Below, piece after piece: positions 623-16,593 of a stretch of DNA of 22,509 nt. The stretch's first letter is position 1, and each line of letters starts with the position of its first letter. This DNA is from Acidimicrobiales bacterium (GTDB lineage Bacteria > Actinomycetota > Acidimicrobiia > Acidimicrobiales > JAJPHE01), in NCBI GenBank assembly GCA_035653595.1, contig DASRBO010000075.1, positions 1-22,509 on the forward strand. Reading direction: 5' to 3'. The position numbers were made by a program, and so were the translations under genes. Under the pieces are notes generated by a model. The model saw only the letters and a program-made list of their open reading frames with translations, was not told where the DNA came from and ran no database searches.

Positions 623-665
623 CGGACTGGTCTCTACCCGGTGACGTGGGGTCAGCGAAGGTCTC

Positions 666-1548: not shown

Positions 1549-2742
1549 ATGAGAGTCCTTCTTGTGTCGGACTTCGTCTTGCCGGTGCGAGGAGGCTTGG
1601 AGGTCTACGTCGCCAATCTGGCAGCGGAGCTGTCGGCCCGAGGTCACGAAGTCCACATCGCCACCTTGACCGACGATCCCGAGCCGCAGGCGGGCGTCCG
1701 GTTGCACACCGTCCGGTCATGGTCCTCGAAGCTGATCTCCCATGCGGACCCCGATCGGCCCTTCGCCGTCCCTGTTCCCGACTTCCGGTCACGGGCCGAC
1801 CTTGAGCGAATCGTCCGGTCCACTCAGCCAGACGTCGTCCACGCCCACACCTGGTTGGGGTGGTCGCTGCGCTCCAGGACCGACACCCCCGTGGTGATGA
1901 CCGTCCATGACTTCGCCCCGATCTGTCAGCTGAGGACCCTCTGGCGCCCCGAGGGCAGGACGTGTGCCGGCCCGAGCTACCTCGATTGTCTGAGGTGCGG
2001 AGCGGCGTCGATGAGCCCCCTCCGGTCGCTCGGTCTCGCCTCGGCGACCGTGGCCGGGCGCCACCGGATGCGGCCCTCCGCCCTCATGGTGCTGAGTCGC
2101 TGCATGCAGACGACCCTGGAGCCGTACTTCGACATGCCGATCGAGGTGATACCTGGCTTCGTGAGCCCTCAGCCGGACGGATCAGGTGTGGCGGCCCAGT
2201 TGCCTCCGGGTCGTTTTGCCATGTTCGCCGGCGACCCCGGGAGGCACAAGGGCCTCGACCTGCTGCTGGACATTTGGAGGAACGATCCCCCTGCGGGCCT
2301 CGATCTGGTGGTGGCCAGCACCCGGGCATCCGAGCTTCCCGTCACCCCGGGCGTCCACCTGCTTCGGCTGACCCCTCAGCAGATGCCGTCGGCCTGGTCC
2401 CGCGCCACCGTCGCCCTGGTGCCCTCCCGCTGGAAGGAGGCGTTCGGGCTCTCCGCCATAGAGGCGCTATCCGCCGGCACGCCGGTCATCGCCAGCGACT
2501 GCGGGGCCTTGCCGGAGTCGGTGGAGTCCGGCAGGAACGGCCTGGTCGTCGCGCCGCAGGACAAGCTGGGCTGGATCCGGGCCATTGCCTCCGTAGTCGA
2601 GGACGGTGGGCTCCACCGGCGACTCGCCGACGGCGCCCGGGCCAGTGCCGCCCGGTGGGCACCGACGACGGTGGTTCCGCAGATCGAAGCGGTGTACCAG
2701 CGAGTTCTGCAACGCCGCCGCGCTCAGCCAGCAACCGTGTGA
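1549..2742 (+). CDS. Glycosyltransferase family 4 (GT-B fold, retaining).
   Basis: 397 aa. The N-terminus is MRVLLVSDFVLPVRGGLEVYVANLAAELSARGHEV. The C-terminal half carries the EAFGLSAIEALSAGTPVIASDCGALPESVESGRNGLVV EX7E-type GT4 signature. GC3 is high. Confidence 0.85.
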   Translation: MRVLLVSDFVLPVRGGLEVYVANLAAELSARGHEVHIATLTDDPEPQAGVRLHTVRSWSSKLISHADPDRPFAVPVPDFRSRADLERIVRSTQPDVVHAHTWLGWSLRSRTDTPVVMTVHDFAPICQLRTLWRPEGRTCAGPSYLDCLRCGAASMSPLRSLGLASATVAGRHRMRPSALMVLSRCMQTTLEPYFDMPIEVIPGFVSPQPDGSGVAAQLPPGRFAMFAGDPGRHKGLDLLLDIWRNDPPAGLDLVVASTRASELPVTPGVHLLRLTPQQMPSAWSRATVALVPSRWKEAFGLSAIEALSAGTPVIASDCGALPESVESGRNGLVVAPQDKLGWIRAIASVVEDGGLHRRLADGARASAARWAPTTVVPQIEAVYQRVLQRRRAQPATV

Positions 2743-2926
2743 GCTGAAGCTGTCTCAGCGCAGCCGTCGCACCCTCTTCGAGCCCTTCCGGAACCGCCGC
2801 TCCGTCGGACGGCCCACCTATCATTTGCCGACCGCCGGGCGGGTCGGCGACCGGGGAGGAGGAGCGATCAACCCCACACCAGCGGCTATCAGCCGCCCGG
2901 GCCTGATCCGATCGCGCTCCGCCGGT

Positions 2927-4744
2927 GTGTTGACAGCCGTCACCCTGCTCGTGGGCGCCGCCGTCCTCCGGGTGGCCTACTCGATGGCGGAGAGGTCGTC
3001 CGGCCATGGCCACTTCGCCGTGTTCTGGGCTTCATATCTCCTGGTCGTAGGGGCCGTCGCCGCCTACGCCTGGTTCCGGGCTTCGAACCGCCTGGCAACG
3101 CTCGCCCTCCTCGGGGGCTTCGGCATATACACCTACCTGCCCAAGCTCCTGATGAGCCTGCACGGACCCGTCTACTACGACGAGTACGGGCACTACCGGC
3201 ACCTGCAGGACATCCTGGCCACCCACTCGGTCAACGTCGACAGCACCTATCTGCCCATCGTCAAGTACTTCCCCGGCCTCGAGCTGGTGACGGCGGCCGT
3301 GCACGAGGCGAGCCGCCTGACGACCTGGCAGGCCGCCCTGATCGTCATCGGCGCTGCCCACGTGGTGACTCTTGTCGCCGTGTGGCAGCTCGCTCTCGCT
3401 CTGCGGCTTCCCGATCGATGGGCCGTTCTGGCGGCAATAGTCTTCGCCTCGAACCCGAACTTCACCTACTTCGACACCGAGTTCGGTTACGAGTCCCTCG
3501 GCCTGGCCCTCGCTCTGGTCAGCATCGTCATGTTCGTGCGGGCTCGCCAGAGCCGCACCGCGGGGCGGGCGTGGGCCTGGACAGCCGGAACCATGCTGTT
3601 GTCGGGCGCGACCATCTTCACCCACCATGCCTCGGCCGCCTTCATGTGCGGGATCCTGCTTACGCTCGCTCTGGCCTTTCCTCCGCTTCGCCAGGACCGC
3701 CGGCAGCGGGCGACCGTGATCGGGCCCTGGGTCGCCGCGCTTGGTGCCACCGTCGGCCTGACCCTGTGGGTCGATCTGGTGGCGACCGGCACCTACGCCT
3801 ACATCGCCCCCCATGTCCACAACGGCCTGGTAGGCGTGTTCGACGTTTTGACCGGACAAAAGCAGGTGGTCTCCAGCGGATCCGGTCGGGTCACGGTCAG
3901 CCCCGGCCACCACCTCTTCGCCGGCGCCGGCGTCCCGATTTACGAGATCGTCTGCGCCTTCATAACACCGGTGGTGGCTCTGGCCGTGCTGGCCGGCGCC
4001 CTCATCGGCAGCTGGTGGGAGCGGGACTGGCACGACGAGATCCGGCGCCGGCTCCCGTTCCTGCTGCTCGGGCTCCTCTACCCGCTCTCCCTCCCGCTGG
4101 CCCTGACGATAAGCGGAGGGGAGACCGCCCACCGGCTGTGGACCTACGCCTACATCGGCCTGGCGCCGTGCGTCTACTGGGCGTGGCCTGTCTACCAGAA
4201 GGCCATGGCCCGGCTGCGGGTCGCTCTGGCCCCTTCCGCCGCGCTGCTTCTAGTCCTTCTCCTCGTCGCCGTGGTCGGCAACGTCGCCTCGGGGGAGGAC
4301 GTCTACTACCGCTTCCCGGGCCCGTACCTGTTCGGCACCGACACCCGGTCACACACGGCGGAGACCTACCAGCTGGCGGACTGGCTCCGTCGGCATCTGC
4401 GGCCGGGGCAGAACGTGGTGACCGACCGCGACACCGGTGAGGTGATTACCGCCTACACCCGTCTCGACACCCCGGCTCCCGCGAACACTCCGGTATACCA
4501 GCTCTACCTCCAGGGCAACCGACCGTCTCCGTCCCTGCGGCGATACCTGTCGGAGTTCGGCTTCTCGTACTGGGTCTTGGACCTGCGGATCGCCAGGGAC
4601 CGACCGGTGCAGACCCTGTTCGCCACCTACGCCGGCCCGTCGAGCGTCAACGCCTCGGCCATCCTGCAGGCGGGCCATGGCAGCAGCTTCCTGACCGTGA
4701 CCCACCGCACCAGGGACTATGAGGTACTTCGGATCTCGAGCTGA
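2927..4744 (+). CDS. Large polytopic membrane protein. It is a putative GT-C-fold glycosyltransferase or polysaccharide polymerase-like protein with a C-terminal soluble domain.
   Basis: The ORF at 2606-4744 is open from 2606, but the first 137 nt overlap the upstream GT4. The likely start is the GTG at 2927, the TTG at 2930 or the ATG at 2984, downstream of ggaggagg at about 2856. The product has more than 10 predicted hydrophobic helices. An acidic YYDEYGHY motif sits in the first extracytoplasmic loop, as in GT-C enzymes. The C-terminal domain of about 150 aa is hydrophilic. Confidence 0.65.
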   Translation: MLTAVTLLVGAAVLRVAYSMAERSSGHGHFAVFWASYLLVVGAVAAYAWFRASNRLATLALLGGFGIYTYLPKLLMSLHGPVYYDEYGHYRHLQDILATHSVNVDSTYLPIVKYFPGLELVTAAVHEASRLTTWQAALIVIGAAHVVTLVAVWQLALALRLPDRWAVLAAIVFASNPNFTYFDTEFGYESLGLALALVSIVMFVRARQSRTAGRAWAWTAGTMLLSGATIFTHHASAAFMCGILLTLALAFPPLRQDRRQRATVIGPWVAALGATVGLTLWVDLVATGTYAYIAPHVHNGLVGVFDVLTGQKQVVSSGSGRVTVSPGHHLFAGAGVPIYEIVCAFITPVVALAVLAGALIGSWWERDWHDEIRRRLPFLLLGLLYPLSLPLALTISGGETAHRLWTYAYIGLAPCVYWAWPVYQKAMARLRVALAPSAALLLVLLLVAVVGNVASGEDVYYRFPGPYLFGTDTRSHTAETYQLADWLRRHLRPGQNVVTDRDTGEVITAYTRLDTPAPANTPVYQLYLQGNRPSPSLRRYLSEFGFSYWVLDLRIARDRPVQTLFATYAGPSSVNASAILQAGHGSSFLTVTHRTRDYEVLRISS

Positions 4745-5936
4745 GAGGACGGTGACGCCAGCGCCCCCCGCCGCTTCGAACCCGCCGGACGGGGCGCTGC
4801 GGATCCTTGTCGTCGGCCCCAGCTACCGCTTCGCCAGCGGAATCTCCGCCTACACCCACCGTCTGAGCCACGCCCTGGCCGAACGCCACGAGGTGTCGGT
4901 GCTGCTGCTGCGCCGCCTGGTTCCGAGGCGCTTCTACCCCGGCTCGGGGCGGGTCGGGCACGATCTCTCCTTCCCCAGCTACCGGCGGCTCTCCCACTTC
5001 GACGGCATCGACTGGTATTGGGGCCCCTCCCTGGTCGGCGGGATCCGGTTCATGCGGCGGTCGCGCCCCCAGGTGGTGCTCTTGCAGTGGTGGACCCTGG
5101 CGGCCCTTCACACCTACCTCGCCCTGGCCCTGCTTGCCCGGCTGGGAGGGACGCCGGTGGTCATCGAGTTCCATGAGGTCCAGGACCCGGCGGAACAGGC
5201 GCTCACCGGGGCCCGGCGCCTCAACCGGTTGGGCCTGAGCCTGCTCGTGCGCTCGGCGCGGGCGGTCATAGCCCACAGCGACGAGGACCTGCGCCTGGTG
5301 AGGTCGGAGGTCGACCTGGGCCCAAGGCCGGCCGCGGTGATCGGCCACGGTCCCTACGACCATCTGGTGGGGCCGGAGGACCCCGGCGACATGACTGCGC
5401 CGCCCTCCTCCGACACCCGGCTCCTGTTCTTCGGGCTGATCCGGCCCTACAAGGGGGTCGAGGACCTCGTCGAGGCCTTCGGGCGCCTGCCGGAGGAGGA
5501 GGCCGCTCATTTCCGCCTCACCATCGTGGGCGAGACCTGGGAGGGTTGGACCCGCCCAGCGGAGTCGATACGGGCCAGCCACTACTCCGAGCGCATCCGG
5601 TTCGTCAACCGTTACGTCCCCGACGACGAGGTCGGCCGCTACTTCAGGGATGCCGACGCCCTGGTCCTGCCTTACCGACGGGCGTCGTCCAGCGGGCCCC
5701 TGAACATCGCCCTGGCCGCTGGCCTACCGGTGGTGCTCTACGACGTGGCCGCCCTGGTCAAGGCGGTCGAGGGCTACGAAGGAGCCATCATCGTGGCCCA
5801 AGGAGACATCGACGGGCTCGGGCGAGCCCTCGGCCAGGTGCGAAGCCTCGGCGGTCGCCGGTTCACTCCTCGGAGAGGTTGGGCGCCGACCGTCGGCGAG
5901 TACACCTCGTTCCTGAACGAGGTCATCGGGCGGTGA
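4719..5936 (+). CDS. Glycosyltransferase family 4.
   Basis: 405 aa. The N-terminus has RILVVGPSYRFASGISAYTHRLSHALAERHEV, and the C-terminus has YKGVEDLVEAF...PYRRASSSGPLNIALAAGLPVVLYD. The ATG at 4719 overlaps the upstream stop by 26 nt. An in-frame alternative GTG lies at 4752. The stop TGA at 5934-5936 overlaps the next gene. Confidence 0.8.
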   Translation: MRYFGSRAERTVTPAPPAASNPPDGALRILVVGPSYRFASGISAYTHRLSHALAERHEVSVLLLRRLVPRRFYPGSGRVGHDLSFPSYRRLSHFDGIDWYWGPSLVGGIRFMRRSRPQVVLLQWWTLAALHTYLALALLARLGGTPVVIEFHEVQDPAEQALTGARRLNRLGLSLLVRSARAVIAHSDEDLRLVRSEVDLGPRPAAVIGHGPYDHLVGPEDPGDMTAPPSSDTRLLFFGLIRPYKGVEDLVEAFGRLPEEEAAHFRLTIVGETWEGWTRPAESIRASHYSERIRFVNRYVPDDEVGRYFRDADALVLPYRRASSSGPLNIALAAGLPVVLYDVAALVKAVEGYEGAIIVAQGDIDGLGRALGQVRSLGGRRFTPRRGWAPTVGEYTSFLNEVIGR

Positions 5937-5944
5937 AGGTGGGG

Positions 5945-7051
5945 ATGGTCACGCCGGCCTACCCGCCGGCGGTGGGTGGAATCGAGGCCCACGTCGCCAG
6001 TCTCACCGAGGCGCTGTCGAAGCTCGGCGTCGAGGTCCAAGTGATCACGCAGGCGTCCGGGCCCCTCAGGCGCAATCCCGCCCTAGTCGAGTTTCGCCGG
6101 CTGCCGATGACCGGGGTCTACCAGTTCGCCCCCGGCCTGCTGCCGTGGACGCGACGCCACCGACGGGACTTCGATCTGTTCCACCTGCACGGCTATCACG
6201 CCGCACCGGCTGGTCTGGTCGCCCCGCTGGTGGGGGGAACACCGATCGTTCTCACCCCGCACTACCACGGCGCCGGGCACACGCGATTGGCGCGAGGCAT
6301 GCACCGGCTCTACGGGGCGGTCAACCGGAACCTGATCCGGCGGGCCCGGGCGGTCATCTGCGTCTCGAGCGCCGAAGCCGATCTGCTCGAGGATCGCTAC
6401 CCATGGGTGCGACCCAAGGTGGAGGTCATCCCCAACGCCGTCGGATCCGAGGGGTTGCTCTCCGCAGCCGCCTTCGAGACCGACAACCCGGTGGTACTCA
6501 CTGCGGGCCGGCTGGTGGGATACAAGAACACCAGGCTGGTGGCAGAGGCGGTGGCCGCCCTCCGTTCGCCTGTGTCACTGGTGGTCGCCGGAGACGGACC
6601 GGAGCGGGCCGATCTCGACGATCTCGCCCGGCGTCACCCGGCCATCGAACTGACCGGTTGGCTGCCCCGCCCCGAGCTGGACCGCTGGTTCCGCACGGCC
6701 AGCATCTTCGTGACCCTGTCAGAGCACGAGGCCTTCGGGATGTCCCTGCTTGAGGCCCTGACGGCGGGCTCGTGGGCGATCGCCTCCGACATCCCCGCCC
6801 ACAGGGAGGTGGCCGCCCTCTGCGGGGCCGAGGACCGGGTGACCTGGCTGCGGCTGCCCTGCACCGCCGAGCAGGTCGGCCGGGCCCTGGAGGACCGGTT
6901 GGCATCCGGTGGTCGCCCGCCGCCCCTTCCCAGAATCTGGGACTGGGGGGAGGCGGCCCGGCGCACGGCGGCCCTCTACCACCGGTTGGTGACCTCTCCA
7001 GAGGTTGCCAGGCCCGCCGGCGGGGTACGTGGCCGCCGTCGGGTGCCATAG
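5945..7051 (+). CDS. Glycosyltransferase family 4.
   Basis: The N-terminus MVTPAYPPAVGGIEAHVASLTEALSKLGVEVQVITQ is a classic GT4 start. LSEHEAFGMSLLEALTAGSWAIASDIPAHREV is the EX7E motif. An RBS gaaggtggg precedes the ATG at 5945. An alternative GTG at 5933 overlaps the upstream stop as GTGA, which suggests translational coupling. Confidence 0.85.
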   Translation: MVTPAYPPAVGGIEAHVASLTEALSKLGVEVQVITQASGPLRRNPALVEFRRLPMTGVYQFAPGLLPWTRRHRRDFDLFHLHGYHAAPAGLVAPLVGGTPIVLTPHYHGAGHTRLARGMHRLYGAVNRNLIRRARAVICVSSAEADLLEDRYPWVRPKVEVIPNAVGSEGLLSAAAFETDNPVVLTAGRLVGYKNTRLVAEAVAALRSPVSLVVAGDGPERADLDDLARRHPAIELTGWLPRPELDRWFRTASIFVTLSEHEAFGMSLLEALTAGSWAIASDIPAHREVAALCGAEDRVTWLRLPCTAEQVGRALEDRLASGGRPPPLPRIWDWGEAARRTAALYHRLVTSPEVARPAGGVRGRRRVP

Positions 7052-7071
7052 GGGGCCCCGCCTGAGCGGGG

Positions 7072-8604
7072 ATGGTTAAAGCGGTCAAACCTAAGATAAG
7101 CCCCCTCGGAACCGATACCTGGCGTGTGCCGGGCGATCGTTCTCTGAGGGGCGTCCGCGCCCTGGTCGCTGCCCTCGCCGCCTTGGCTCTACTGGCGTCC
7201 TCGGCCTGGGGGCTCAGCCGAGCGGCAGCCGCTCCCAAGCGGATACCGGTGAGCGGTCTGCACATCATGAACTACTACCCCTCCGACGACGGGTGGACCT
7301 TGATGTGGACGGACTACTCCCACGCCACCACCGTGTCGGACTTCCAGGCCCTGGCGTCTCTGGGGGCGAACACTGTCCGGGTCATAGTCCAGCCCTCGGC
7401 GGTCGGGTACCCGTCGGTGACCACGACCATGAGAGCCGAGTTCGACGACATGCTCGGCGTGGCGGCGGCGACCGGGCTGCAGGTGCAGCTGTCCCTGTTC
7501 GACCAGTGGGGCAACTACTCCGACATCAGCGGCTCGGAGCAGTGGGTGTCCTCGTTGCTGCAGGGCATGGGGAACGACAACATCATCGACCTGGTCGAGC
7601 TGCGCAACGAGATGCCATTGACCCCCGCCGCGATCGCCTGGGCCCAGCAGTTGCTCCCTTACCTGTCGAAGGTCCTGCCCGGGGTGCCCCGCACGGTCTC
7701 TTCCTCGGGAGCCACGGGGCTGGCTGGGGTTACCGCCCTTCTGAACGCCATTCCCAGCTCCATGTTGGACGTGGTCGATGTCCACTACTACGGCGAGCCC
7801 AGCCTGGCCTTCGCCGAGCTGACTGCTGTCAAGGCAGAAAGCGGTGGTCGGCCGGTGATCGTCGGGGAGACCGGTGAGAGCACCTATGGGACCGCATCGG
7901 GCGAGGTGGCCCAGGCCCGCTACTTCGCCATCATGGCGCAGACGACCCGAGCCCTGAACATGCCCCCGCCGGCCCCGTGGATGCTCAACGACGTCATCCG
8001 GGCGGCAGGCGAGACCCTGACCACCGGCGAGGAGTACTTCGGCCTCCGGCGGCCGGACGGGACCTGGAAGCCGGCCGCGACCATCGTGCGGGAGGCCTTC
8101 GAGGGACAGGCCGTCAGCGGGAGCGCGTTCGACACCAGCCTGCAGGCGGAGGCCAACAACGGCGGCAGCACCCTTCTGGGGGCCTGGTCCGCCTTCGACT
8201 CCGCTGACGGCCTGCCGGTGGTCACTCCTGGGATTCCGACTCCCGGGCTCCAGGCGGTCTGCTACCAGAACACCGGTGGGAGCACCTCGGACAACCCCGC
8301 TCTCGAGCAGTCGCTCCCGATCTTCACCTCGGGCCAGGAGGTCTCCGTGTCGGCCACCCTCCAGCGCACCGGGACCGGCTTCGACCAGGTGTCCATCGCC
8401 TACTACAGCGCCGGCGGCAGCTACCTGGGCGAAGCGGACTCGCCGACCGCCAGCCTCATCGGACCTCAGGAGACCCTGTCCGTTTCCACGACGGTTCCGC
8501 CCGGCGTCGCCGCCGTTGCCATCAACCTCAAGGCGGCCCACCAGTCCGGTCAGGCCTGCTGGGAGTCGACGACCATCCAGACTCCCAACCTCATCACCAG
8601 CTGA
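7072..8604 (+). CDS. Secreted glycoside hydrolase of the GH-A clan (GH5-like TIM barrel), with a C-terminal beta-sandwich (putative carbohydrate-binding) domain.
   Basis: A signal-peptide-like N-terminus reads RSLRGVRALVAALAALALLASSAWGLSRAAAAP. The putative acid/base motif is VELRNEMPL (NEP-like) and the nucleophile motif is RPVIVGETGEST. The C-terminal domain of about 130 aa has 2 Cys. The start is uncertain: the ATG at 7072 sits in an unusually AT-rich stretch, and an in-frame GTG at 7126 is an alternative. Confidence 0.65.
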   Translation: MVKAVKPKISPLGTDTWRVPGDRSLRGVRALVAALAALALLASSAWGLSRAAAAPKRIPVSGLHIMNYYPSDDGWTLMWTDYSHATTVSDFQALASLGANTVRVIVQPSAVGYPSVTTTMRAEFDDMLGVAAATGLQVQLSLFDQWGNYSDISGSEQWVSSLLQGMGNDNIIDLVELRNEMPLTPAAIAWAQQLLPYLSKVLPGVPRTVSSSGATGLAGVTALLNAIPSSMLDVVDVHYYGEPSLAFAELTAVKAESGGRPVIVGETGESTYGTASGEVAQARYFAIMAQTTRALNMPPPAPWMLNDVIRAAGETLTTGEEYFGLRRPDGTWKPAATIVREAFEGQAVSGSAFDTSLQAEANNGGSTLLGAWSAFDSADGLPVVTPGIPTPGLQAVCYQNTGGSTSDNPALEQSLPIFTSGQEVSVSATLQRTGTGFDQVSIAYYSAGGSYLGEADSPTASLIGPQETLSVSTTVPPGVAAVAINLKAAHQSGQACWESTTIQTPNLITS

Positions 8605-8609
8605 GCCAA

Positions 8610-8626
8610 CGCGCCGCTCCGGCGCG
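8610..8626 (+). terminator. GC hairpin downstream of the hydrolase gene.
   Basis: cgcgccg-ctc-cggcgcg is a perfect 7-bp stem, followed by cattctcc. It sits 6 nt after the stop at 8604. Confidence 0.4.
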
Positions 8627-8727
8627 CATTCTCCTGCCCATCGACCCGCCTGCTCAGGACTTTGGTCCCTGCCGGTTCGCCTTCGCTTAATCCGATGATG
8701 GACGCAGTTCAAACAACGGAGAGCGAT

Positions 8728-9327
8728 ATGAGACGCAGGACATTTGACATGCTGGCTACCGCCGGCGGTCTTGTGCTGATGGCCGTCCTCGCCATCGCCG
8801 GCGGCCTGTTGATGCGGGGCGCCAGCTTCGCCAACGGCCAGGTCCACAACCAGCTGGCCCAGCAGCAGATCACGTTCCCGACCGCGGCCGCCCTGGCCAA
8901 CGCCAAGCCGGGTACCGAGCTCACCCCGGCGATGGTCCCGTACCTCAGCCCGTACGCCGGCCAGCAGCTGACGACCGGCCCTCAGGCCGAGGCCTACGCC
9001 GATCACTTCATCGCCGACCATCTGGCTGCCATGCCCTTCGGCGGGGTGTACTCGAAGGTCAGCGCGGCCTCGATAGCCGCCCCGACCAACACGAAGCTCG
9101 CCGCTGAGGTCCAGACGGTGTTCCGGGGCACGACCCTTCGGGGTCTGCTGCTGGAGGCCTACGCCTTCTCGAAGTTCGGTCAGATCGCCCTCATCGCCGG
9201 CGTCTGCGCCTTCGCCCTCGCCGGGGTGATGCTGGTCCTCTCCGGGTTCGGGCTCTGGCACCTCCGCCGGGTGCCGGCTGAGCAGGAGCTGCTCGGTCCC
9301 CGCATCGCTGGTCGGGTCGCCGCCTGA
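8728..9327 (+). CDS. Hypothetical bitopic membrane protein with N- and C-terminal TM helices and a central extracytoplasmic region.
   Basis: The ATG at 8728 is preceded by ggagag 6 nt upstream. It encodes MRRRTFDMLATAGGLVLMAVLAIAGGLLM...IALIAGVCAFALAGVMLVLSGFGLW. GC3 is high. A strong terminator follows. Confidence 0.55.
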   Translation: MRRRTFDMLATAGGLVLMAVLAIAGGLLMRGASFANGQVHNQLAQQQITFPTAAALANAKPGTELTPAMVPYLSPYAGQQLTTGPQAEAYADHFIADHLAAMPFGGVYSKVSAASIAAPTNTKLAAEVQTVFRGTTLRGLLLEAYAFSKFGQIALIAGVCAFALAGVMLVLSGFGLWHLRRVPAEQELLGPRIAGRVAA

Positions 9328-9368
9328 GCAAACCCTCCCCCGACCGGACCTACCCCTAGCCCCCAGAA

Positions 9369-9410
9369 GCCCCGCCCTCGGGCGGGGCTTCGGTCGTTTT
9401 GTCCGTTCTT
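9369..9410 (+). terminator. Rho-independent terminator.
   Basis: The stem gccccgcc (9369-9376), the loop ctcg and the stem ggcggggc (9381-9388) form a perfect 8-bp GC stem. It is followed by ttcggtcgttttgtccgttctttcc, a T-rich tract. Confidence 0.65.
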
Positions 9411-9727
9411 TCCATCCCGCCCCGCCCCGCCCCGGCCGTGCTGCTTGGCCGCGAGCGGGGCGCCTGTCTCGACGCTCACATCACCAGGTCCGGGCCCGAC
9501 CACGCAGCAGCGCCCTAGGAGCAGGCCCGTCATCGGCAGAGGGCCCACGCCGGAGCCCGCTGTGGTCGACGGCGGCCACGGCGAGGAAATTTCCGCCAGG
9601 GCGCCGCAAGTTCCGAAGCCGGTCGGCGTATTAGCCACCGAACAGGCGGCCGGGGAACCGGGCGTGCGACACCACCGGGGTCGCCGAACCACCCCCTGTC
9701 GTTCGGAGCAGAGCTCAGGAGTTGGTG

Positions 9728-10603
9728 GTGCAGGTAATCGAGATCGACAGCGAGCCATACCCGACACCAGCGCAGTCGGACGGCACCTCGGTGGTCATCG
9801 ACCTCCGCGATCCGGTCACCATCGATCCGTTCCCAACGTCGGAGCAGGTCGATGCGCCCCCCAACTACGGCGAGGCTGGCCCCCCCCAGGTCAGCCTCGC
9901 CGTATTAATGCCCGTGTTCAACGAGGCCCGGACGGTCCGTCAGGCGGTCCAGGACGTGTTGTCCGTCCACTACCCCTGTCCGATGGAGCTGATCGTCGTC
10001 AATGACGGGAGCACCGATGAGACCGCCTCGATCCTGGCGTCGCTGAGCGACGATCGACTGACCGTCCTTCACCACGCCGTCAACCGGGGCAAAGGTGCCG
10101 CCCTGAAGACGGCGGCCTCGGCGACGACGGGCGCCACCCACGTGGTGCCCTTCGACGCCGATCTCGAGTACTCGGCCGCCGATCTCCTCCGCCTGGTGGA
10201 TCAGGTGGTGGATGGCCGAGCCAACGTCGTGTTCGGCTCCCGCCGTTCGGGGCGCTCGGTGCCCCACCAGAACCGGCTCTACGCCATCGGCAACACGGTC
10301 ATGACCAAGGTCGCCAACACGCTCTACGGTTCACGCTTGACCGACCTCCACACCTGCCTCAAGCTCGTGCCCGCCCGGTTGTTCGCGCAGCTGCCCCTTC
10401 TCGAGGAGGGGTTCGGTCTGGATACCGAGCTCACCGCCTGGCTGCTGCGCAGCGGCGCCCAGCTGCGGGAGGTCCCGATCTCCTACCGCAGCCGCAGCCG
10501 GGCCGAGGGCAAGAAGATCTCGTGGCGGGACAGCCTGGTCTGCTTCCACCTCCTCTTCCGCATCCGGCTGGAGGACGCTCCGGTCCTCGGCGGCGCCGCC
10601 TAG
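9728..10603 (+). CDS. Glycosyltransferase family 2, polyprenyl-phosphate sugar synthase-like (DPM1/GtrB/Ppm1 type), with a Pro-rich N-terminal extension.
   Basis: The motifs are LAVLMPVFNE, LIVVNDGSTDET, a DADLEY DXD-type motif, and FGSRRS. An RBS aggag lies at 9716-9720, and candidate starts are the TTG at 9722 and the GTGs at 9725 and 9728. About 55 Pro/Asp/Glu-rich residues precede the catalytic domain. Confidence 0.8.
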   Translation: MQVIEIDSEPYPTPAQSDGTSVVIDLRDPVTIDPFPTSEQVDAPPNYGEAGPPQVSLAVLMPVFNEARTVRQAVQDVLSVHYPCPMELIVVNDGSTDETASILASLSDDRLTVLHHAVNRGKGAALKTAASATTGATHVVPFDADLEYSAADLLRLVDQVVDGRANVVFGSRRSGRSVPHQNRLYAIGNTVMTKVANTLYGSRLTDLHTCLKLVPARLFAQLPLLEEGFGLDTELTAWLLRSGAQLREVPISYRSRSRAEGKKISWRDSLVCFHLLFRIRLEDAPVLGGAA

Positions 10604-10728
10604 CGCTGAGAACGCGACACCAGACGACCATGGCCCCTGGTATCCTATTTACGGTTACGCTAAAGTAAGTAGTACCGGGCGTCACCAAGGGGCGCCCTTC
10701 TGGGGAGCCTGGGGAGGATGTGGCGACG

Positions 10729-11187
10729 ATGAGGCGGGCGGCGCTGGTGTTGGCGGGATTGGCCGGGGCCGGGCTCAGTGCCTGGCAGCTGGCCCCGGCC
10801 CAGGGGGCTCCCTCGCGCGGAATCTGCACCGCCGCCGCCGGCGCCCCCTGCTCGTTCACCAGCGTCGCCGTCATCGGGGGCACGAACGAGGAGGGCGTCA
10901 TCTCTTCCCTCCAGGTGGGCACCTTCACCGTGGCCGTGGTCACCGCCGGCCAGCCCCGCAACCGTCACGGTGAGGCCCTGGGCTACCAGGGCCAGATCTG
11001 CAGCGTCTCCATCGCCAACGGCGGGCCTCCCAAGGGCAAGCCCAGGACCGACGCCGAGGGTCAGCCCATCAGCTGGACGGGGACGGGCGCCGGGGTGGTG
11101 TCGGGGTTGTTCATCCAGGGCTGCACCTACTCGGTGACCGTCAACAAGGGCGGCATCGGCACGGTGACGGTCGGCCAGACCAACTGA
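10729..11187 (+). CDS. Small secreted hypothetical protein with a signal peptide and 4 Cys.
   Basis: MRRAALVLAGLAGAGLSAWQLAPAQGAPS... has a typical n/h/c signal and an AxA-like site. ggggagga lies upstream. GC3 is high. The gene is preceded by an AT-rich stretch at about 10630-10680. Confidence 0.55.
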   Translation: MRRAALVLAGLAGAGLSAWQLAPAQGAPSRGICTAAAGAPCSFTSVAVIGGTNEEGVISSLQVGTFTVAVVTAGQPRNRHGEALGYQGQICSVSIANGGPPKGKPRTDAEGQPISWTGTGAGVVSGLFIQGCTYSVTVNKGGIGTVTVGQTN

Positions 11188-11194
11188 AGCGTCG

Positions 11195-12541
11195 CTAACC
11201 GTCGCCGGCGCCGGCGGCCAGCTCCTCGAGCATGAGTTTGCGGGCCGGCACCCCGTCGTCGAAGCGGAGGGCCTTGACCAGGTGGACGATGGTCCCCTTC
11301 TCCGGCTCCGACTCGAAGCGGACGTGGTCCACCAGGGCATGCATCAGCGCCACCCCCCGGCCGTGCTCGGCATCCATGGCCGCCATGGTCGGGCGCAGGG
11401 CCACGTGGTCGAAGCCGTGGCCAACGTCGATGACCCGGATGTGGCAGTCGGACGGCCCGACGCTGACCGCCACGTCGTAGACGTCGCCCGGCCCCGAATG
11501 GTCGATCACGTTGGCGCAGGCCTCGGTGAGGGCCAGCTCCACCGCCGCCGAGTCCTCTTCGAGCACCCCCACCTCCGACATCGCCGCCCGGATCAGATGG
11601 CGGGTGACGGGAACGCTGAGGCGATCGCGGGGCAGCTGGAGGGACAGGGTGAAGCGGAAGCCGTTGGCGCGGGAATCGCTCTCGTCGGCGTCCAGGGGAA
11701 GGATGCCGGTCGCCGGCCAGGCGTAGCGGTGGGACGTCAACCGGCCGGTGGGCGTGCCCAGGTCTACGACCAGGCGGCACTGGGGGTCACCGAGGGCGAT
11801 GCGCTCGTCGAGGGTCACCTCGGCTCCGCCGGCCGCCCGGGCCCCGAGCCCGCCGGCCAGGGCGGAGGTGAACCGGCACAACCCCGGGGGAGGTGACGGT
11901 CCGAACGGACAGCGCCGGACCCCCAGCACGACCCGGCTGCGGCTGCGGGAGACCACGTGGAAGTCGCCGCCGAGCTCGGCCTCGGTGGCGATCAGGCTGT
12001 CGGCCACCGCCATCGGGTCCGGCGCCAAGGGCGCCTCGTTCGCCCGGCGCTGGGCGACGGTGGCTCCCGCCAGGGCGGCCGCTTCGTCCATCGCCATCCC
12101 TGAGGTCATGTGGGCGGCCATGAGGGCCGCTACCGCCGCCGGCTGACCGGCCGGGACCAGGGCGGGATCGGCGCTGACGGGGTCGAGGTTGGCCTCCGGA
12201 GCCCGGGCGACGGCCAGGCCCACCCGTACGCCGGGGCTGGACCCGTGGGCGGAGAACAGGCTCCTGGCGTCGTCCTGGGCCCGGGTGAGGCCGGCGCCGA
12301 CGCTTTCACCGGGCAGGTCGCCGGCGGGCAGGTGGCGCAGCTCCAGCCGGGCCAGCTGCTCCTCCCAGTCGAAGGAGACCCAGATCGGTCCGGGGTCCAT
12401 CTCCGTCAGGGCCTCGTGGACCAGAGGCCGGGCCAGCTCGGCCACCGCCGGCTCGATGGCGTGGCGGGCCAGATGCGCCGTGACCTCCTGCTCGAGGCGG
12501 GTGACGGCCCCCCCGACTCTCGTGTCTACGCACCACTCCAC
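11195..12541 (-). CDS. Multidomain sensor/kinase. It has an N-terminal degenerate GHKL-like domain, a central V4R-like domain, and a C-terminal RsbW-type anti-sigma regulatory factor (HATPase_c) serine kinase domain.
   Basis: The C-terminus reads LALTEACANVIDHSGPGDVYDVAVSVGPSDCHIRVIDVGHGFD...EHGRGVALMHALVDHVRF (N, G1 and G2 boxes). The middle has RCPFGPS...LCRFTSALAGGLGA...ALGDPQCRLVVDLG, which matches V4R Cys/Gly motifs. The N-terminus has ARPLVHEALTEMDPGPIWVSFDWEEQLARLEL, which is GHKL-like without the Asn. The GTG start at 12541 is preceded by the gaaggtgagggg RBS. Confidence 0.65.
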   Translation of the reverse strand: MEWCVDTRVGGAVTRLEQEVTAHLARHAIEPAVAELARPLVHEALTEMDPGPIWVSFDWEEQLARLELRHLPAGDLPGESVGAGLTRAQDDARSLFSAHGSSPGVRVGLAVARAPEANLDPVSADPALVPAGQPAAVAALMAAHMTSGMAMDEAAALAGATVAQRRANEAPLAPDPMAVADSLIATEAELGGDFHVVSRSRSRVVLGVRRCPFGPSPPPGLCRFTSALAGGLGARAAGGAEVTLDERIALGDPQCRLVVDLGTPTGRLTSHRYAWPATGILPLDADESDSRANGFRFTLSLQLPRDRLSVPVTRHLIRAAMSEVGVLEEDSAAVELALTEACANVIDHSGPGDVYDVAVSVGPSDCHIRVIDVGHGFDHVALRPTMAAMDAEHGRGVALMHALVDHVRFESEPEKGTIVHLVKALRFDDGVPARKLMLEELAAGAGDG

Positions 12542-12624
12542 TGCCCCTCACCTTCCCCGCAGGCGACGGCCCTACCCTGCCCGCTCGATGGGCCGGGGGC
12601 GAGGCGGGCCGAGCGCTTCTGGAC

Positions 12625-13020
12625 CTAGGGCTCCCCGGGCTGCTCCGGCTCGATGTGCATGGCGGCCTCCTCGGGGAGCAGCCCATCGGTGTCGTCCTCG
12701 GCCAGCTCGGCCACCTCGGTCGCTTCGTCGTCGGCCAGCCCACCCCCGTCGGGTGCCAGCAGGCGGCCCGGTCGCACCTCGGCGCCCCTGGCTTCCGGCT
12801 GCTCCCGCCGCAGCCGGTCCTCGAGGCGCTCGGGCATCCGCCCCTCGGCCGGGGTGGTCCCGTAGTCGTCGGCGGCCACCGGATGGTCCCGCGGCGGGGC
12901 CAGGCCCTCGACGGCGGACTGGTCGTCGATACCGGGGGGCTGGTCCTCGACCGGGGGGAGGCCCTCGGCCTCGAGATCGGTGAACGGGGGGTCCTGGGAC
13001 GCTCGTCTCATCGCCGGCAT
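12625..13020 (-). CDS. Highly acidic, low-complexity (intrinsically disordered) hypothetical protein.
   Basis: 131 aa, Asp/Glu/Pro-rich, with EDRLRREQPEARGAE. GC3 is about 90%, which is diagnostic of true coding in this genome. gagggtaggg lies 5 nt upstream of the ATG at 13020. It sits between the Fur-family gene and the kinase on the same strand. Confidence 0.5.
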   Translation of the reverse strand: MPAMRRASQDPPFTDLEAEGLPPVEDQPPGIDDQSAVEGLAPPRDHPVAADDYGTTPAEGRMPERLEDRLRREQPEARGAEVRPGRLLAPDGGGLADDEATEVAELAEDDTDGLLPEEAAMHIEPEQPGEP

Positions 13021-13062
13021 CCCTACCCTCGGTCTGCTCCCGCCACCCCGGCGGGGCGTCAG

Positions 13063-13446
13063 TCAGCCCCCGCAGTTGGAGCAGACGCCGAAGATCTCCA
13101 CGGTGTGGGTCACCTCGCTGTAGCCCAGCCGTTGGGCGACGACCTCGGCCCACTGCTCGACCTCGGGACCCTCCACCTCGGCCGAGGTGCCGCACCGCCG
13201 GCAGACGATGTGGTGGTGGTGGCCGTCGCTGCGGCAGTGTCGATAGACCGTCTCGCCGTCGGCCGCCTGCAGGGCGTCGATGATGCCCTCGTCGGCCAGC
13301 AGCTGAAGGTGGCGGTAGACGGTGGTGAGGCCCACCGACTCACCCCCCGCCCGCAGCTCGGCGTGGATGTCCTGGGCGCTGCGGAAGCTGGTGGAGCCCT
13401 GCAGCACCCGGAGCACGGCCTGGCCCTGTCTGGTGCTGCGGCTCAC
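13063..13446 (-). CDS. zur: Fur-family transcriptional regulator, likely the zinc uptake regulator Zur.
   Basis: 127 aa. It has a winged-helix N-terminus (GLTTVYRHLQLLADEGII). The metal sites read HCRSDGHHHHIVCRRCG...FGVCSNCG, which gives the HHHH and CxxC...CxxC pattern. The GTG start is at 13446, 11 nt after the carbonic anhydrase stop. Confidence 0.85.
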   Translation of the reverse strand: MSRSTRQGQAVLRVLQGSTSFRSAQDIHAELRAGGESVGLTTVYRHLQLLADEGIIDALQAADGETVYRHCRSDGHHHHIVCRRCGTSAEVEGPEVEQWAEVVAQRLGYSEVTHTVEIFGVCSNCGG

Positions 13447-13456
13447 CCGACAGAGA

Positions 13457-13957
13457 TTACGGTCGGCTCGGGCCCACCTCGGCCAGTTCGCCGGTGCCTA
13501 CGTCGAAGACGAACCCACGGGCGTCGTGGCTGAGCAGCCAGGGACAGTCCCGTAGGCGCTCGAGGGAGACCCGGACGTCTTCGTAGGGGTCCCTGAAGGC
13601 TCCCGGGACCCAACCCGGTCGCTGGCCGGTCCGCCGCTCGAGGTCGTCGAGCAGGCTCTGGTCGTCCAGCTTCTGCATGCCGCAGTCGGTGTGGTGCACC
13701 AGGACGATCTGGCGGGTGCCGAGGGCGGTCTGGCTGAGCACCAGCGATCGGACGGTGTCGTCGGTGACCAGGCCGCCGGCGTTGCGCAGCAGGTGAGCGT
13801 CGCCGATCTCGAGGCCGAGCACGCCGAACAGGTCGAGGCGGGCGTCCATGCAGGCCACCACGGCCAGCTTCCGTCGGGGAGCGGATTGGAGCCCGGAGGA
13901 GGAGTAGGTCTCGCGAAAGCGAGCGGCGGCGGTGAGGATGGGGTCGTCGTCGGACAT
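13457..13957 (-). CDS. Beta-class carbonic anhydrase.
   Basis: VVACMDARLD (CxDxR) and VHHTDCGM (HxxC) are the zinc-ligand motifs of beta-carbonic anhydrase. It is 166 aa. An RBS gggaga lies 8 nt upstream of the ATG at 13957. Confidence 0.85.
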   Translation of the reverse strand: MSDDDPILTAAARFRETYSSSGLQSAPRRKLAVVACMDARLDLFGVLGLEIGDAHLLRNAGGLVTDDTVRSLVLSQTALGTRQIVLVHHTDCGMQKLDDQSLLDDLERRTGQRPGWVPGAFRDPYEDVRVSLERLRDCPWLLSHDARGFVFDVGTGELAEVGPSRP

Positions 13958-14193
13958 GGCTGCATTCTCCCTGCCGGTAGTGGCCGCCAGTCCAACATCC
14001 GGAGATATGGGACGATCCCCGCGACCACTGACATACCACTCGTGGTGGCGGATAGCGTTGGGATCAGGAAGGACTCTGGCGATCGAGGGAGAACCTCATT
14101 GGCGACTGGTTAGTGGTTGCAAACCAGCGAACGGCGACTCTGCGGCTCGGCCATCGGATCGATGGGTCGTAGCGCACCGGATCCGGGTGTTCC

Positions 14194-14988
14194 ATGAGCC
14201 TTAGCGAAAAATCCGCCGAAGCCCCGATGGAGCTGGACCTGCTCCCGCTGATCGACCGGCTTCCCGCCTGCTCCTCGGGCCTGGCCTACCTCTACTGGTG
14301 CCTGGACCACCTGGTGGAGGCCCTGGGCCTCGACGACGCCGTGCTGACCATGGAGCACCCCGCCCTGGGGCTGCAGATCTTCCGGGCCAAGAAGAGGCCG
14401 GCGGCGGAGGAGGTGGAGGGCGAGCGGGTCGACAAGCCCGGCCTGTACCTGTTCCCCGACCCCCTCAACGACGAGCACAAGCGGGCGGTGGCCCAGCTCT
14501 GCGACGTGGCCCTCACCATCGAGCTGGCCCGCCACGACGCCTCCAACGACGCCCTCACCGGCCTGCTCAACCGGCGGTCCTTCTCCGAGGCCATCAACGG
14601 GTTCAGGGCCCACAGCGAGCGCCACGGCATGGGCTTCTGCCTGGCCCTGCTCGACGTGGACGGTCTCAAGGTGATCAACGACACCATGGGCCACTTCGAG
14701 GGCGACCGCCTCCTGCGGATCACCGGTTCTGAGCTGCGCCGGTGCCTGCGGGCGGGCGACGTGGCCGCCCGGATCGGCGGCGACGAGTTCGCAGTCCTGC
14801 TGGCCAACGGCACCGCCGAGGCCGCCGACCGGCTCAAGGGACGACTGCAGGAGTCGGTCAGCCGGGCCCTCAACCGACCCATGGCCTTCTCCGTGGGGGC
14901 GGCGGTGGCCCCGACGGAGTCCCTGAACGCCGACGAGCTGTTCCGTCTCGCCGACGGCCGACTCTACGAGGACAAGCGACGGAGGTGA
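14194..14988 (+). CDS. Diguanylate cyclase (GGDEF domain) with an N-terminal domain of about 110 aa of unknown type. It has an intact A-site and I-site.
   Basis: DALTGLLNRRSF...LLDVDGLKVINDTMGH...RCLRAGDVAARIGGDEFAV. The RxxD I-site (RAGD) lies exactly 5 residues before GGDEF. There are no TM segments. Confidence 0.85.
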   Translation: MSLSEKSAEAPMELDLLPLIDRLPACSSGLAYLYWCLDHLVEALGLDDAVLTMEHPALGLQIFRAKKRPAAEEVEGERVDKPGLYLFPDPLNDEHKRAVAQLCDVALTIELARHDASNDALTGLLNRRSFSEAINGFRAHSERHGMGFCLALLDVDGLKVINDTMGHFEGDRLLRITGSELRRCLRAGDVAARIGGDEFAVLLANGTAEAADRLKGRLQESVSRALNRPMAFSVGAAVAPTESLNADELFRLADGRLYEDKRRR

Positions 14989-15259: not shown

Positions 15260-15934
15260 TTAGGACATTGCGAAGTCCGACTTGGCCCGCTCGGGCAGCT
15301 GGACCAGGCCGTAGCCCATGGCGATGGAGACGGCGTGGGCCTGGGTGCGGGCCCCGAGCTTGTCGAAGAGCCGGATCTTGTGGCTCTCGACCGTCTTGAG
15401 GGCGACCCCCAGTCGCTTGGCGATGGCCTTGGCGGGCAACCCCTCGGCCATGGCCGCCAGTACCTCCGCCTCGCGCGGGGTGAGGGAGAAGCTGTTGGAC
15501 CCTCCGCCGGAACGGAAGCCCCGCCACTGGGCGAGCACCACGCTGGCGGCCCGGCTGTAGAGCGCGGCACCGCCCTGGCCGACGGCGGACACGGCGTCGG
15601 CGATGCGGGCGGCGTTCATGTCATGGGACAGGAAGCCTGAGGCGCCCCGCTCGAGGCAGGCCATTATCCGCTCCTCCGAGGGGTCCTCGCTCAGCACCAC
15701 CACATGGGTGCCGGCGGCGACCAGGCTGGATATGACGTCGTCGACCTTCCTGCCCGCCAGAGGATCGGACAGGACCACCACCTCGGGCCGCTGCTCGGCC
15801 ACCGACGACTCCAGCTCGGGAGCGCTGGAGACGCTGGCCACTACGTCGATGTGTTGCTGACGCAGGCTCCGGGCCAGAACCTCGCGCACCAACCGGTTGC
15901 GATCCGCCAGTACTACCCGCATGTCGAGCGTCAC
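15260..15934 (-). CDS. LuxR/NarL-family response regulator (receiver domain plus LuxR-type HTH).
   Basis: MRVVLADRNRLVREVL...VVVLSDPLAG (phospho-acceptor Asp)...GASGFLSHD, where the conserved Lys position appears to be replaced. The C-terminal HTH reads LTPREAEVLAAMAEGLPAKAIAKRLGVALKTVESHKIRLFDKLG. Its start overlaps the upstream paralogue's stop by 4 nt. Confidence 0.8.
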   Translation of the reverse strand: MTLDMRVVLADRNRLVREVLARSLRQQHIDVVASVSSAPELESSVAEQRPEVVVLSDPLAGRKVDDVISSLVAAGTHVVVLSEDPSEERIMACLERGASGFLSHDMNAARIADAVSAVGQGGAALYSRAASVVLAQWRGFRSGGGSNSFSLTPREAEVLAAMAEGLPAKAIAKRLGVALKTVESHKIRLFDKLGARTQAHAVSIAMGYGLVQLPERAKSDFAMS

Positions 15935-16593
15935 CCCACCGCGCTTGTCGGGACAGGAATGGACTTCAAGGTCGGGGTGATCATGCCCCGCCGCACACCA
16001 AGGGCCACGGCGTGAGACTGGTTCTGCACTCCGAGCTTGGCGTAGATGTGCTGCTTGTGGTTCTCGATGGTCTTGGCCGATATCCCGAGGACCTCGGCGA
16101 TCTCGTTGGTGCTGTGCCCGCCTCCTAGCAGCTTGAGGACCTCGACCTCCCGAGGGGTGAGCACCTGCCGGCCGGTTAGAGAGAGGTAATTCGCACCGCC
16201 GTGAGCGGCCGGTGCAGCGCCGTCGTCCCCGGCGCCGACGGCCAGACCCAGGCGCCGCATCAGCTCGTGCAGGCCCGCCCGGAGGGAGACCACCCCTGCC
16301 AGCTCCGGGCAGCCGTGCCGGCGTAGGGCGGAGTCAACCCGTCTGGTCCGCGACAGGCCGAGCAACGTCGCTCCTCGGGCGACGATGCGCAGCCGGGCGG
16401 CATCGGCACGCCACTGGTCGGCGGGATCGTCCTCGAGCTCGAAGACGATGGTGTCGACGGGCCTGGCGGTGACCAGGTCGACGAGTTGGTCGATGGTGGC
16501 GGCCGACAGGACCTCGCCGTCGGTCCCTTCGGTCAGCAGCTCAGCGAGCCCAGAGCGGACGAGCTCAGTCCGGCAACCCAGTGCGATACGCAC
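15931..16593 (-). CDS. LuxR-family transcriptional regulator with an atypical (pseudo-receiver) N-terminal domain.
   Basis: The C-terminus LTPREVEVLKLLGGGHSTNEIAEVLGISAKTIENHKQHIYAKLGV is a LuxR HTH. The N-terminal alpha/beta domain lacks the acidic pocket (MRIALGCRTELV in place of DD). It is in tandem with, and overlapping, the downstream paralogue. Confidence 0.75.
   Translation of the reverse strand: MRIALGCRTELVRSGLAELLTEGTDGEVLSAATIDQLVDLVTARPVDTIVFELEDDPADQWRADAARLRIVARGATLLGLSRTRRVDSALRRHGCPELAGVVSLRAGLHELMRRLGLAVGAGDDGAAPAAHGGANYLSLTGRQVLTPREVEVLKLLGGGHSTNEIAEVLGISAKTIENHKQHIYAKLGVQNQSHAVALGVRRGMITPTLKSIPVPTSAVG

Follow-up and report, generated by a model that had tools for sequence, protein, structure and literature searches.

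RsbW-type serine kinases are abundant in Actinomycetota, and to our knowledge it is not known what most of the orphan kinases of this type sense. The contig DASRBO010000075.1 of an Acidimicrobiales bacterium, from which a stretch of 22,509 nucleotides was analysed (the 22.5-kb "window"), brings this question to a single gene: the minus strand at 11195..12541 encodes a protein of 448 amino acids, which a first-pass annotation made from the sequence alone had described as a degenerate GHKL domain, a V4R domain and an RsbW-like kinase domain in one chain. What is this protein, what might it perceive, and in which circuit might it act? The three-domain reading is confirmed: a decayed RsbW-type domain is followed by a cysteine-bearing MetOD1 domain and by an intact RsbW-type kinase. 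By a modest balance of the evidence, we judge the protein to be a serine kinase of the RsbW type, cytoplasmic and gated by a sensor, that acts in a partner-switching-like circuit of phospho-signalling.

Three domains in one 448-residue chain

The open reading frame (ORF) was taken as a real gene because of its codon-position bias (GC3 of 0.92 versus GC2 of 0.52, with the window as a whole at about 69% GC), its ribosome-binding site, its 85 homolog clusters and the MDWCVD start that it shares with most of them. These clusters are 36–65% identical to the window protein and nearly all of about 440–480 residues, and their N-termini are consistent with the GTG start. Most carry no source name; those that do are nearly all from metagenome-assembled genomes (MAGs) of Acidimicrobiales or Acidimicrobiaceae. 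Full-length relatives at 32–38% identity come from Nocardioidaceae, among them the cultured Nocardioides jiangsuensis WL0053, and from further MAGs of Actinomycetota. Sixty-three homologs were aligned, and all counts of conservation given below refer to this alignment, which was also used for an AlphaFold2 (AF2) model of the whole protein; the model has a mean predicted local distance difference test (pLDDT) score of 90.1 and a predicted template modelling (pTM) score of 0.70, and comprises three folded units with short linkers. The features of the gene are as follows.

11195..12541, minus strand: whole gene for the 448-residue, three-domain protein (from the ORF list; GTG start at 12541, stop at 11195-11197)
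12545..12558, minus strand: purine-rich ribosome-binding site GGAAGGTGAGGGG, read from the sequence directly 5' of the GTG start
12197..12541, minus strand: residues 1-115, degenerate (pseudo) HATPase_c_2/RsbW-like domain (bridging by remote-homolog profiles, alignment to P0306, weak Foldseek list)
11702..12154, minus strand: residues 130-280, MetOD1 domain with a V4R/H-NOX/Bet3-like fold (Pfam, homolog matches, Foldseek)
11777..11911, minus strand: putative metal/thiol site C211, C222, E246 and C255 (conservation and analogy; codons verified)
11909-11911, minus strand: codon of C211, in CPFG
11876-11878, minus strand: codon of C222, in CR
11804-11806, minus strand: codon of E246
11777-11779, minus strand: codon of C255, in GDxxCR
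11267..11656, minus strand: residues 296-425, intact RsbW/SpoIIAB-type serine kinase domain, HATPase_c_2 (Pfam, conservation, SpoIIAB alignment, Foldseek)
11498-11524, minus strand: N box of the C-terminal kinase (this and the next two boxes from alignment to SpoIIAB 1L0O)
11408-11428, minus strand: G1 box of the C-terminal kinase
11354-11362, minus strand: G2 box of the C-terminal kinase
11207..11263, minus strand: residues 427-445, conserved C-terminal helix FDDxxPARRLML (F427 and L436 nearly invariant)

At the level of fold and motifs, the C-terminal domain is confirmed as an RsbW/SpoIIAB-type serine kinase, and the first-pass annotation was right to call it a canonical anti-sigma or partner-switching kinase domain. 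Residues 309-423 match Pfam HATPase_c_2 (PF13581) with an E-value of 6e-20 (72 bits against a cut-off of 27.4), and E340, N344, H348, D372-x-G-x-G376, F377, D378 and G394-R-G396 are identical in all 63 homologs and line up with the N, G1 and G2 boxes of SpoIIAB. When the full model was compared with known structures by Foldseek, SpoIIAB, RsbW and UsfX were the best matches (E-value of about 2e-7). Residues 432-445 at the end of the chain are helical in the AF2 model, and relatives that consist of the kinase alone end in a matching tail, DGPLxRL.

The N-terminal domain is confirmed, by structural and sequence routes, to be a decayed HATPase_c_2, in agreement with the GHKL-like fold lacking the catalytic Asn that had been proposed. 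Modelled separately, residues 1-125 gave a pLDDT of 94.7; a Foldseek search with this domain alone returned nothing at an E-value of 0.001 or below, and its weak matches were nearly all GHKL domains. A hidden Markov model (HMM) of the domain hit 163 representatives at E-values of 0.001 or below among 1.84 billion proteins, the match beginning at residue 1 in most of the 150 listed. In the remote matches P0113, P0119, P0121 and P0142, the N-terminal domain matches Pfam HATPase_c_2 directly (E-values from 1.7e-12 to 4.8e-6), and three of the four have recognisable N, G1 and G2 boxes. Residues 1-290 are collinear with the 316-residue protein P0306 of Conexibacter woesei (BLASTP E-value of 8e-35, 32% identity). 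In the window family, the N box has suffered a deletion of three residues and an Asn anywhere in that region is found in only 3 of the 63 homologs; the Asp of the G1 box is not conserved, and only G84 remains of the G2 box. The MDW motif in the first strand (beta1) is retained, and the pseudo-GHKL domain most likely keeps an ancestral role in dimerisation or in coupling to MetOD1. An hhalign comparison of the N- and C-terminal profiles was not significant (E-value of 0.038, against 0.055 for a control of the N-terminal with the middle domain) and thus gave no detectable signal of duplication; the two copies therefore diverged anciently and do not stem from a recent duplication.

As for the centre, it is assigned to MetOD1, a relative of V4R, rather than to V4R proper. 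Pfam V4R (PF02830) was not matched by the window protein at an E-value of 1 or below, nor by any of the 63 members at 0.01 or below. Pfam MetOD1 (PF18546) is matched by the window protein at 21.1 bits, under the cut-off of 23.8 and over profile positions 52-139 only, by 61 of the 63 members at E-values of 0.01 or below (best 8e-13), and by the relatives P0121 and P0142 at 48–52 bits across the whole profile. Beyond kinases, the Foldseek list of the full model contains TRAPPC3/Bet3 (E-value of 4e-4), H-NOX (4e-3) and the PoxR sensor (5.5e-3), matches which, with query ranges not displayed, presumably belong to the middle domain. MetOD1 has been described as similar to HNOB, V4R and ATC hydrolase, with a cluster of three conserved Cys residues that MetOD1 has in common with V4R and ATC hydrolase (Galperin et al., PMC5847659). 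The Cys/Gly pattern that had led to the V4R label is thus genuine, but the family is a different one.

This pattern comprises C211-P-F-G, C222-R and G251-D-x-x-C255-R, all invariant or nearly so; the three Cys residues occur in 63 of 63 homologs and E246 in 59 of 63. In the phenol sensors of the MopR type (MopR, PoxR and CapR), a zinc with a structural role, which keeps the integrity of the protein, is bound by three Cys and one Glu (PMC10715001), and in MsvR three conserved Cys residues of the V4R domain modulate redox-dependent DNA binding (PMC3729527). By analogy, the conserved three Cys and Glu point to a metal or thiol site in MetOD1; the binding of hydrophobic ligands or tetrapyrrole precursors that had been suggested for this domain was not supported. 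The spacing of the Cys residues, C-x10-C-x32-C, is unlike that of V4R (approximately C-x25-C-x7-C at the MsvR positions). Of the V4R site, the first and last Cys appear to correspond to C222 and C255, and the Glu to E246; the near-invariant A249 would stand where V4R has its middle Cys, and C211 would be supplied by the preceding strand.

The Cys residues are lost in some relatives from Nocardioidaceae and related MAGs: two of them (L041, 10001-10732, and L044, 10001-10720; SPFG...S...GDPAD) have none of the three, and a third (L069, 10001-10738) retains the last one only. The full three-domain order is visible in the Cys-poor L044 and L069.

Three other identities were considered and rejected. 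The conserved positions showed no counterpart of the Y-x-S-x-R motif or the proximal His of a heme-binding H-NOX; Pfam detected no dimerisation/phosphoacceptor domain of a histidine kinase; and no hydrophobic segment suggesting membrane insertion, as in a membrane sensor, was found in the 448-residue protein.

A derived branch of a wider superfamily and its genomic surroundings

The architecture had been regarded as unusual, but it is not a one-off. A search with P0121 returned at least 496 clusters built on a core of HATPase_c_2 followed by MetOD1, and the window family is a derived branch of this superfamily, with a second RsbW-like kinase as output and a decayed N-terminal ATP site. The following arrangements were seen.

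About 316–325 residues: core module alone, e.g., Conexibacter woesei P0306 and Miltoncostaea marina P0276
About 426 residues: core with a GerE (LuxR-type) helix-turn-helix (HTH)
About 525–540 residues: core with REC and GerE
About 448 residues: decayed N-terminal ATP site and a second kinase, the family of the window protein

Named members of the superfamily are P0121, P0142, P0272, P0306 and P0276, in addition to some 490 further clusters; in these, an active form of HATPase_c_2 precedes MetOD1. The window protein shares the GHKL domain with the MDW start and the collinear MetOD1 with CPFG...CR...E...GDxxCR, but lacks the intact ATP-binding motifs of the N-terminal GHKL domain. Because the core occurs alone, with GerE, or with REC and GerE, we read the two N-terminal domains as an input module. 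It also follows from an actinobacterial superfamily with several outputs that MetOD1 is neither specific to methanogens nor solely an output domain: its name comes from response regulators of archaea, and in hundreds of proteins from Actinomycetota it also forms a core with an RsbW-like ATPase. In public databases, HATPase_c_2–MetOD1 proteins are called "ATP-binding protein", "anti-sigma regulatory factor" or "methanogen output domain 1-containing protein". No experimental paper on these proteins, the family of the 448-residue protein included, was found in the searchable literature, so that the protein was rightly described as uncharacterised.

The C-terminal domain is 50–65% identical to stand-alone kinases of about 150 residues, whose genes are convergent to an orthologous GAF-like/SpoIIE PP2C phosphatase gene (about 390 residues) in at least 10 loci of Acidimicrobiia. 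The most economical history, as judged from sequence comparison, would be as follows: a widespread two-domain module of Actinomycetota, with an active HATPase_c_2 and then MetOD1, was the ancestor; a second RsbW-like kinase, of the sort normally paired with GAF/SpoIIE PP2C, was joined to it; and the N-terminal ATP site, now redundant, decayed into a pseudo-kinase scaffold. The tandem of pseudo-kinase and kinase would then be a clear bacterial example of the decay of a catalytic site after domain fusion.

The surroundings of the relatives are consistent with a phospho-signalling role. SpoIIE-type PP2C is the only functional class that recurs near them: such genes lie within 2.5 kb in eight related full-length loci, and all PP2C matches of the full-length loci fall within this distance although the flanks reach 10 kb. 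The orthologous GAF-like/SpoIIE PP2C of about 390 residues is encoded directly beside the three-domain gene in three loci, convergent to it in L005 and L015 and 50 bp upstream of it in L089, while other PP2Cs are 0.1–2.4 kb away in L004, L006, L007, L087 and L009, the last being Nocardioides jiangsuensis. A STAS gene overlaps the 3' end of the three-domain gene in L087, the only locus with STAS adjacency. Genes for the core module have PP2C neighbours in two of three contexts (L092 and L093). A partner-switching role gains support from these eight PP2C loci and the one abutting STAS gene; the "ligand-gated partner-switching kinase" proposed earlier is thus supported in part, but not with regard to the hydrophobic or tetrapyrrole ligand. 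No third conserved partner was found beside the kinase–PP2C pairs, and no sigma factor gene adjoins in the window or in any inspected context.

Further neighbours vary with lineage, and de novo clustering of flanking ORFs revealed only lineage-specific synteny. One clade of relatives has a groEL/guaB context. In two Acidimicrobiia loci (L081, 9562-13256, and L084, 9530-13187), the three-domain gene precedes fabD-fabH-acpP-fabF by about 200 bp in the same orientation and is divergent from a gene of about 275 residues without a Pfam match. In a group of Nocardioidaceae (L025, L028, L031-L037, L039, L042 and L043), the ortholog is 100–150 bp downstream of a CysS/MshC-like ligase gene of about 400 residues (MshC 248–254 bits and CysS 223–229 bits, both under the cut-off) and adjoins a convergent ArsR(BigR-like)-DUF202-DUF202-rhodanese/MBL cluster, a surrounding of thiol/sulfur flavour that is specific to this lineage. 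A Haem_oxygenas_2 (PF14518) gene adjoins the stand-alone HATPase_c_2–MetOD1 gene in two genomes (L091, 2306-3319, and L092, 3933-4838).

The following scheme is our inference about what the protein senses and phosphorylates, what the pseudo-domain does and in which direction the kinase is regulated. By analogy with the V4R sensors, MetOD1 would hold a metal or reactive-thiol centre at C211, C222, C255 and E246, and this is probably where the signal is perceived, be it a metal, a thiol-redox change or a small ligand. If the centre changed (through loss of the metal, oxidation, or binding of a ligand in an adjoining pocket), MetOD1 would shift its position against the pseudo-GHKL domain and against the C-terminal helix, which is conserved, and the C-terminal kinase would thereby be turned on or off. 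The substrate then phosphorylated by the kinase would be of STAS type or similar, probably a STAS protein with its gene elsewhere in the genome, and a SpoIIE-type PP2C, whose gene would also be elsewhere in this genome, would undo the phosphorylation. The family thus ties a candidate sensor to an RsbW-type kinase and so narrows down where the signal of orphan kinases could be sought. In the cultured N. jiangsuensis WL0053, the ortholog (L009, 10001-11311) stands in a string with GAF-ANTAR, HATPase_c_2-hydrolase and PAS-PP2C genes, which makes the family testable.

Weighing the proposed sensor-gated kinase against its rivals

Several results weigh against a sensor-gated kinase of a partner-switching-like circuit. 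Searches by Pfam on plausible ORFs of the window found no STAS, sigma factor or PP2C genes; the adjacent STAS and sigma genes are missing, as had been noted earlier. A tblastn search for STAS in the loci and the window, a test of low sensitivity, recovered nothing but the locus that had supplied the query. The immediate contexts vary, and no neighbour is common to the whole family. The scores of the window protein against three NCBIfam equivalogs are 25–47 bits where the cut-offs are 135–210 (32.9 against 145 for RsbW, PRK04069; 38 against 135 for SpoIIAB, TIGR01925; 47 against 210 for RsbA, NF041045), and orthology to any studied kinase is therefore excluded. Sequence searches of the PDB with the family profile and with the middle domain alone gave no V4R, H-NOX or MetOD1 structure but only chance matches to L13. 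The argument for the metal or thiol site is one of conservation and analogy, and the Cys site is not universal, since two of the Cys-poor relatives described above are without all three residues and the third without two.

Among the alternatives, one keeps the live kinase but changes the geometry. The dead N-terminal and the live C-terminal GHKL domains might form a single-chain, asymmetric RsbW dimer, in which a metal–thiolate centre (Zn or Fe-S) in MetOD1 would act as a hinge, opening or closing the pair in response to redox state or a ligand and gating both the kinase activity and the capture of partners; MetOD1 would then be a bacterial sensor partner of RsbW-like ATPases and not an output domain peculiar to methanogens. 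Such an intramolecular pseudo-dimer would be an attractive alternative, although in its full form we consider it rather unlikely.

The protein might instead be mainly an anti-sigma factor, whose GHKL-fold domain or domains sequester an alternative sigma factor and whose Zn-thiolate in MetOD1 releases it upon oxidation in the manner of RsrA, with kinase activity being secondary. SpoIIAB, RsbW, UsfX and LvrC, the closest structures, are indeed anti-sigma factors, the three invariant Cys residues and the Glu would suit such a switch, and the Nocardioidaceae orthologs are situated between the CysS/MshC-like ligase and an ArsR/DUF202/rhodanese-MBL operon reminiscent of sulfur stress. That synteny is, however, lineage-specific and the ligase is under the MshC cut-off; furthermore, the recurring neighbours are not sigma factors but PP2C phosphatases, which implies phospho-signalling, and every catalytic residue is strictly conserved, so that catalysis would be expected to matter. 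On these grounds, we regard an anti-sigma factor as unlikely.

It is also conceivable, though we think it quite unlikely, that the Cys/Glu site only holds a structural zinc, the kinase being constitutive or regulated by partners and the two N-terminal domains being a scaffold for dimerisation or docking. While the three-Cys-plus-Glu zinc of MopR, PoxR and CapR is described as keeping structural integrity, and the pseudo-GHKL domain keeps the beta1 MDW motif in a region (beta1/alpha1) that forms the dimer interface of RsbW-type proteins, the V4R Cys residues of MsvR are regulatory. Moreover, relatives carry this module joined to HTH or REC-HTH outputs, as is typical of an input or sensor module, and the existence of Cys-less family members means that the fold does not need the site.

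The immediate neighbourhood of the gene suggests yet another possibility, for which the other genes of the window have to be described.

12625..13020, minus strand: acidic protein of 131 residues with a weak DUF5709 match (Pfam 26.7 bits against 27.5), upstream of the kinase gene across a gap of 83 bp
13063..13446, minus strand: Zur-like regulator of the Fur family, upstream (Pfam FUR E-value of 5e-29; PDB matches)
13457..13957, minus strand: beta-carbonic anhydrase, 10 bp upstream of the Zur-like gene
10720..11187, plus strand: small, probably secreted protein of 155 residues with a signal-peptide-like N-terminus and no Pfam match
2-682, minus strand: sulfotransferase of a polysaccharide-type cluster
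1549-2742, 4719-5936 and 5546-7051: three GT4 genes of the same cluster
9722-10603: GT2 gene of the same cluster
2606-4744 and 7072-8604: two large ORFs of the same cluster without Pfam matches

The acidic protein and the zur gene had been reported as being downstream on the same strand; the strand and the Zur-like identity stand, but, the gene being on the minus strand, both are upstream. Against the PDB, the Fur-family protein scored 153 bits with Zur of Streptomyces coelicolor (3MWM) and 141 with Zur of Mycobacterium tuberculosis (2O03), versus 61 or less with Fur/PerR, and beta-carbonic anhydrase is a zinc enzyme. Counting the kinase gene, four genes follow one another on the same strand with gaps of 10, 42 and 83 bp; none of the gaps contains a terminator-like site, the single site found being inside the carbonic anhydrase gene, and the acidic DUF5709-like gene is possibly co-transcribed with the kinase gene; a scan of 10500-14300 for promoters and terminators gave nothing useful. 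One could thus imagine a co-transcribed zinc-homeostasis unit, in which the plausible zinc site of the sensor domain senses zinc. We consider this very improbable, as no Zur box (TGAAAATNATTTTCA, up to three mismatches) matched anywhere in the window, the kinase gene has its own strong ribosome-binding site, and none of the genes for Zur, the DUF5709-like protein and carbonic anhydrase, nor those for the secreted protein and GT2, was found near homologs by tblastn in 80 genome loci. In the annotated contigs of relatives, the three upstream neighbours are likewise absent, and a Fur-family gene was seen only in L087, at a distance of 7 kb. The surroundings of Zur and the acidic protein, to which attention had been drawn, are therefore not conserved.

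That MetOD1 is an enzyme, an ATC-hydrolase-like C–S hydrolase with catalysis coupled to the kinase, is barely credible in spite of the common Cys cluster, an enzymatic role suggested in the literature (PMC5847659) and a weak ATC_hydrolase match of P0142 (E-value of 0.0034), given that none of the 63 family members matches ATC_hydrolase at an E-value of 0.01 or below, that the fusion partners are all signalling domains (GHKL, REC and HTH), and that no metabolic gene context was found.

Other parts of the window are recorded here as observations. The gene for the 155-residue protein is the downstream, convergent neighbour of the kinase gene, their stop codons being 7 bp apart, and positions 2-10603 make up the polysaccharide-type cluster. 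On the other side, a GGDEF gene (14194-14988, plus strand) is beside two genes for LuxR-type regulators that overlap by 4 bp on the minus strand (15260-15934, with REC and GerE, and 15931-16593, with GerE and no REC domain detected). An ORF for a membrane protein (21927-22509, plus strand) runs off the right edge of the window; its N-terminus resembles that of a 916-residue GAF-SpoIIE-HATPase_c_2 protein of L087 (tblastn E-value of 2.3e-5, 40% identity over 75 residues), and, given this similarity, the ORF may encode a component of partner switching, situated about 10 kb away from the kinase gene and truncated by the end of the window.

Comparison with known systems

The sensor-gated kinase favoured here is closest in its C-terminal domain to RsbW, SpoIIAB and UsfX, with which it shares the fold and all three motifs (N, G1 and G2); the N-terminal domain is a decayed version of this fold. 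Those proteins are, however, single domains of about 140–160 residues, encoded together with a STAS antagonist and a sigma factor, whereas the window protein has 448 residues in three domains and no such neighbours in the window. Over its first 290 residues, the window protein resembles the uncharacterised HATPase_c_2–MetOD1 proteins of C. woesei (P0306) and M. marina (P0276) and their GerE and REC-GerE variants, which have the same MDW start and the same CPFG...CR...E...GDxxCR pattern; they differ in that their N-terminal ATP site is intact and that they end after MetOD1 or carry DNA-binding outputs.

Precedents for fusion are available among better-known proteins. LvrC of Leptospira, with a REC and an RsbW-like Bergerat domain, exemplifies an RsbW-like domain under a fused input, although the input there is REC. 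Rv1364c of M. tuberculosis is a multidomain partner-switching fusion, of which the solved fragment (3KE6) contains the RsbU and RsbW domains; its RsbW is fused to an RsbU-type phosphatase domain. Neither LvrC nor Rv1364c has MetOD1 or a tandem pseudo-GHKL domain.

With regard to the sensor, the window protein resembles MopR, PoxR, CapR, MsvR and the archaeal REC-MetOD1 response regulators in the H-NOX/V4R-like fold suggested by Foldseek and in a signalling role. The three-Cys cluster is common to the window protein, the V4R sensors and the archaeal MetOD1, and the Glu is also present in the sensors of the MopR type; in contrast to the V4R sensors, the window protein has no Pfam V4R match, another spacing of the Cys residues, and GHKL in place of AAA+ or HTH as the partner domain. 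The three-domain architecture is not a categorically new switch but an RsbW-type kinase fused to an input domain, within a sizeable, uncharacterised superfamily.

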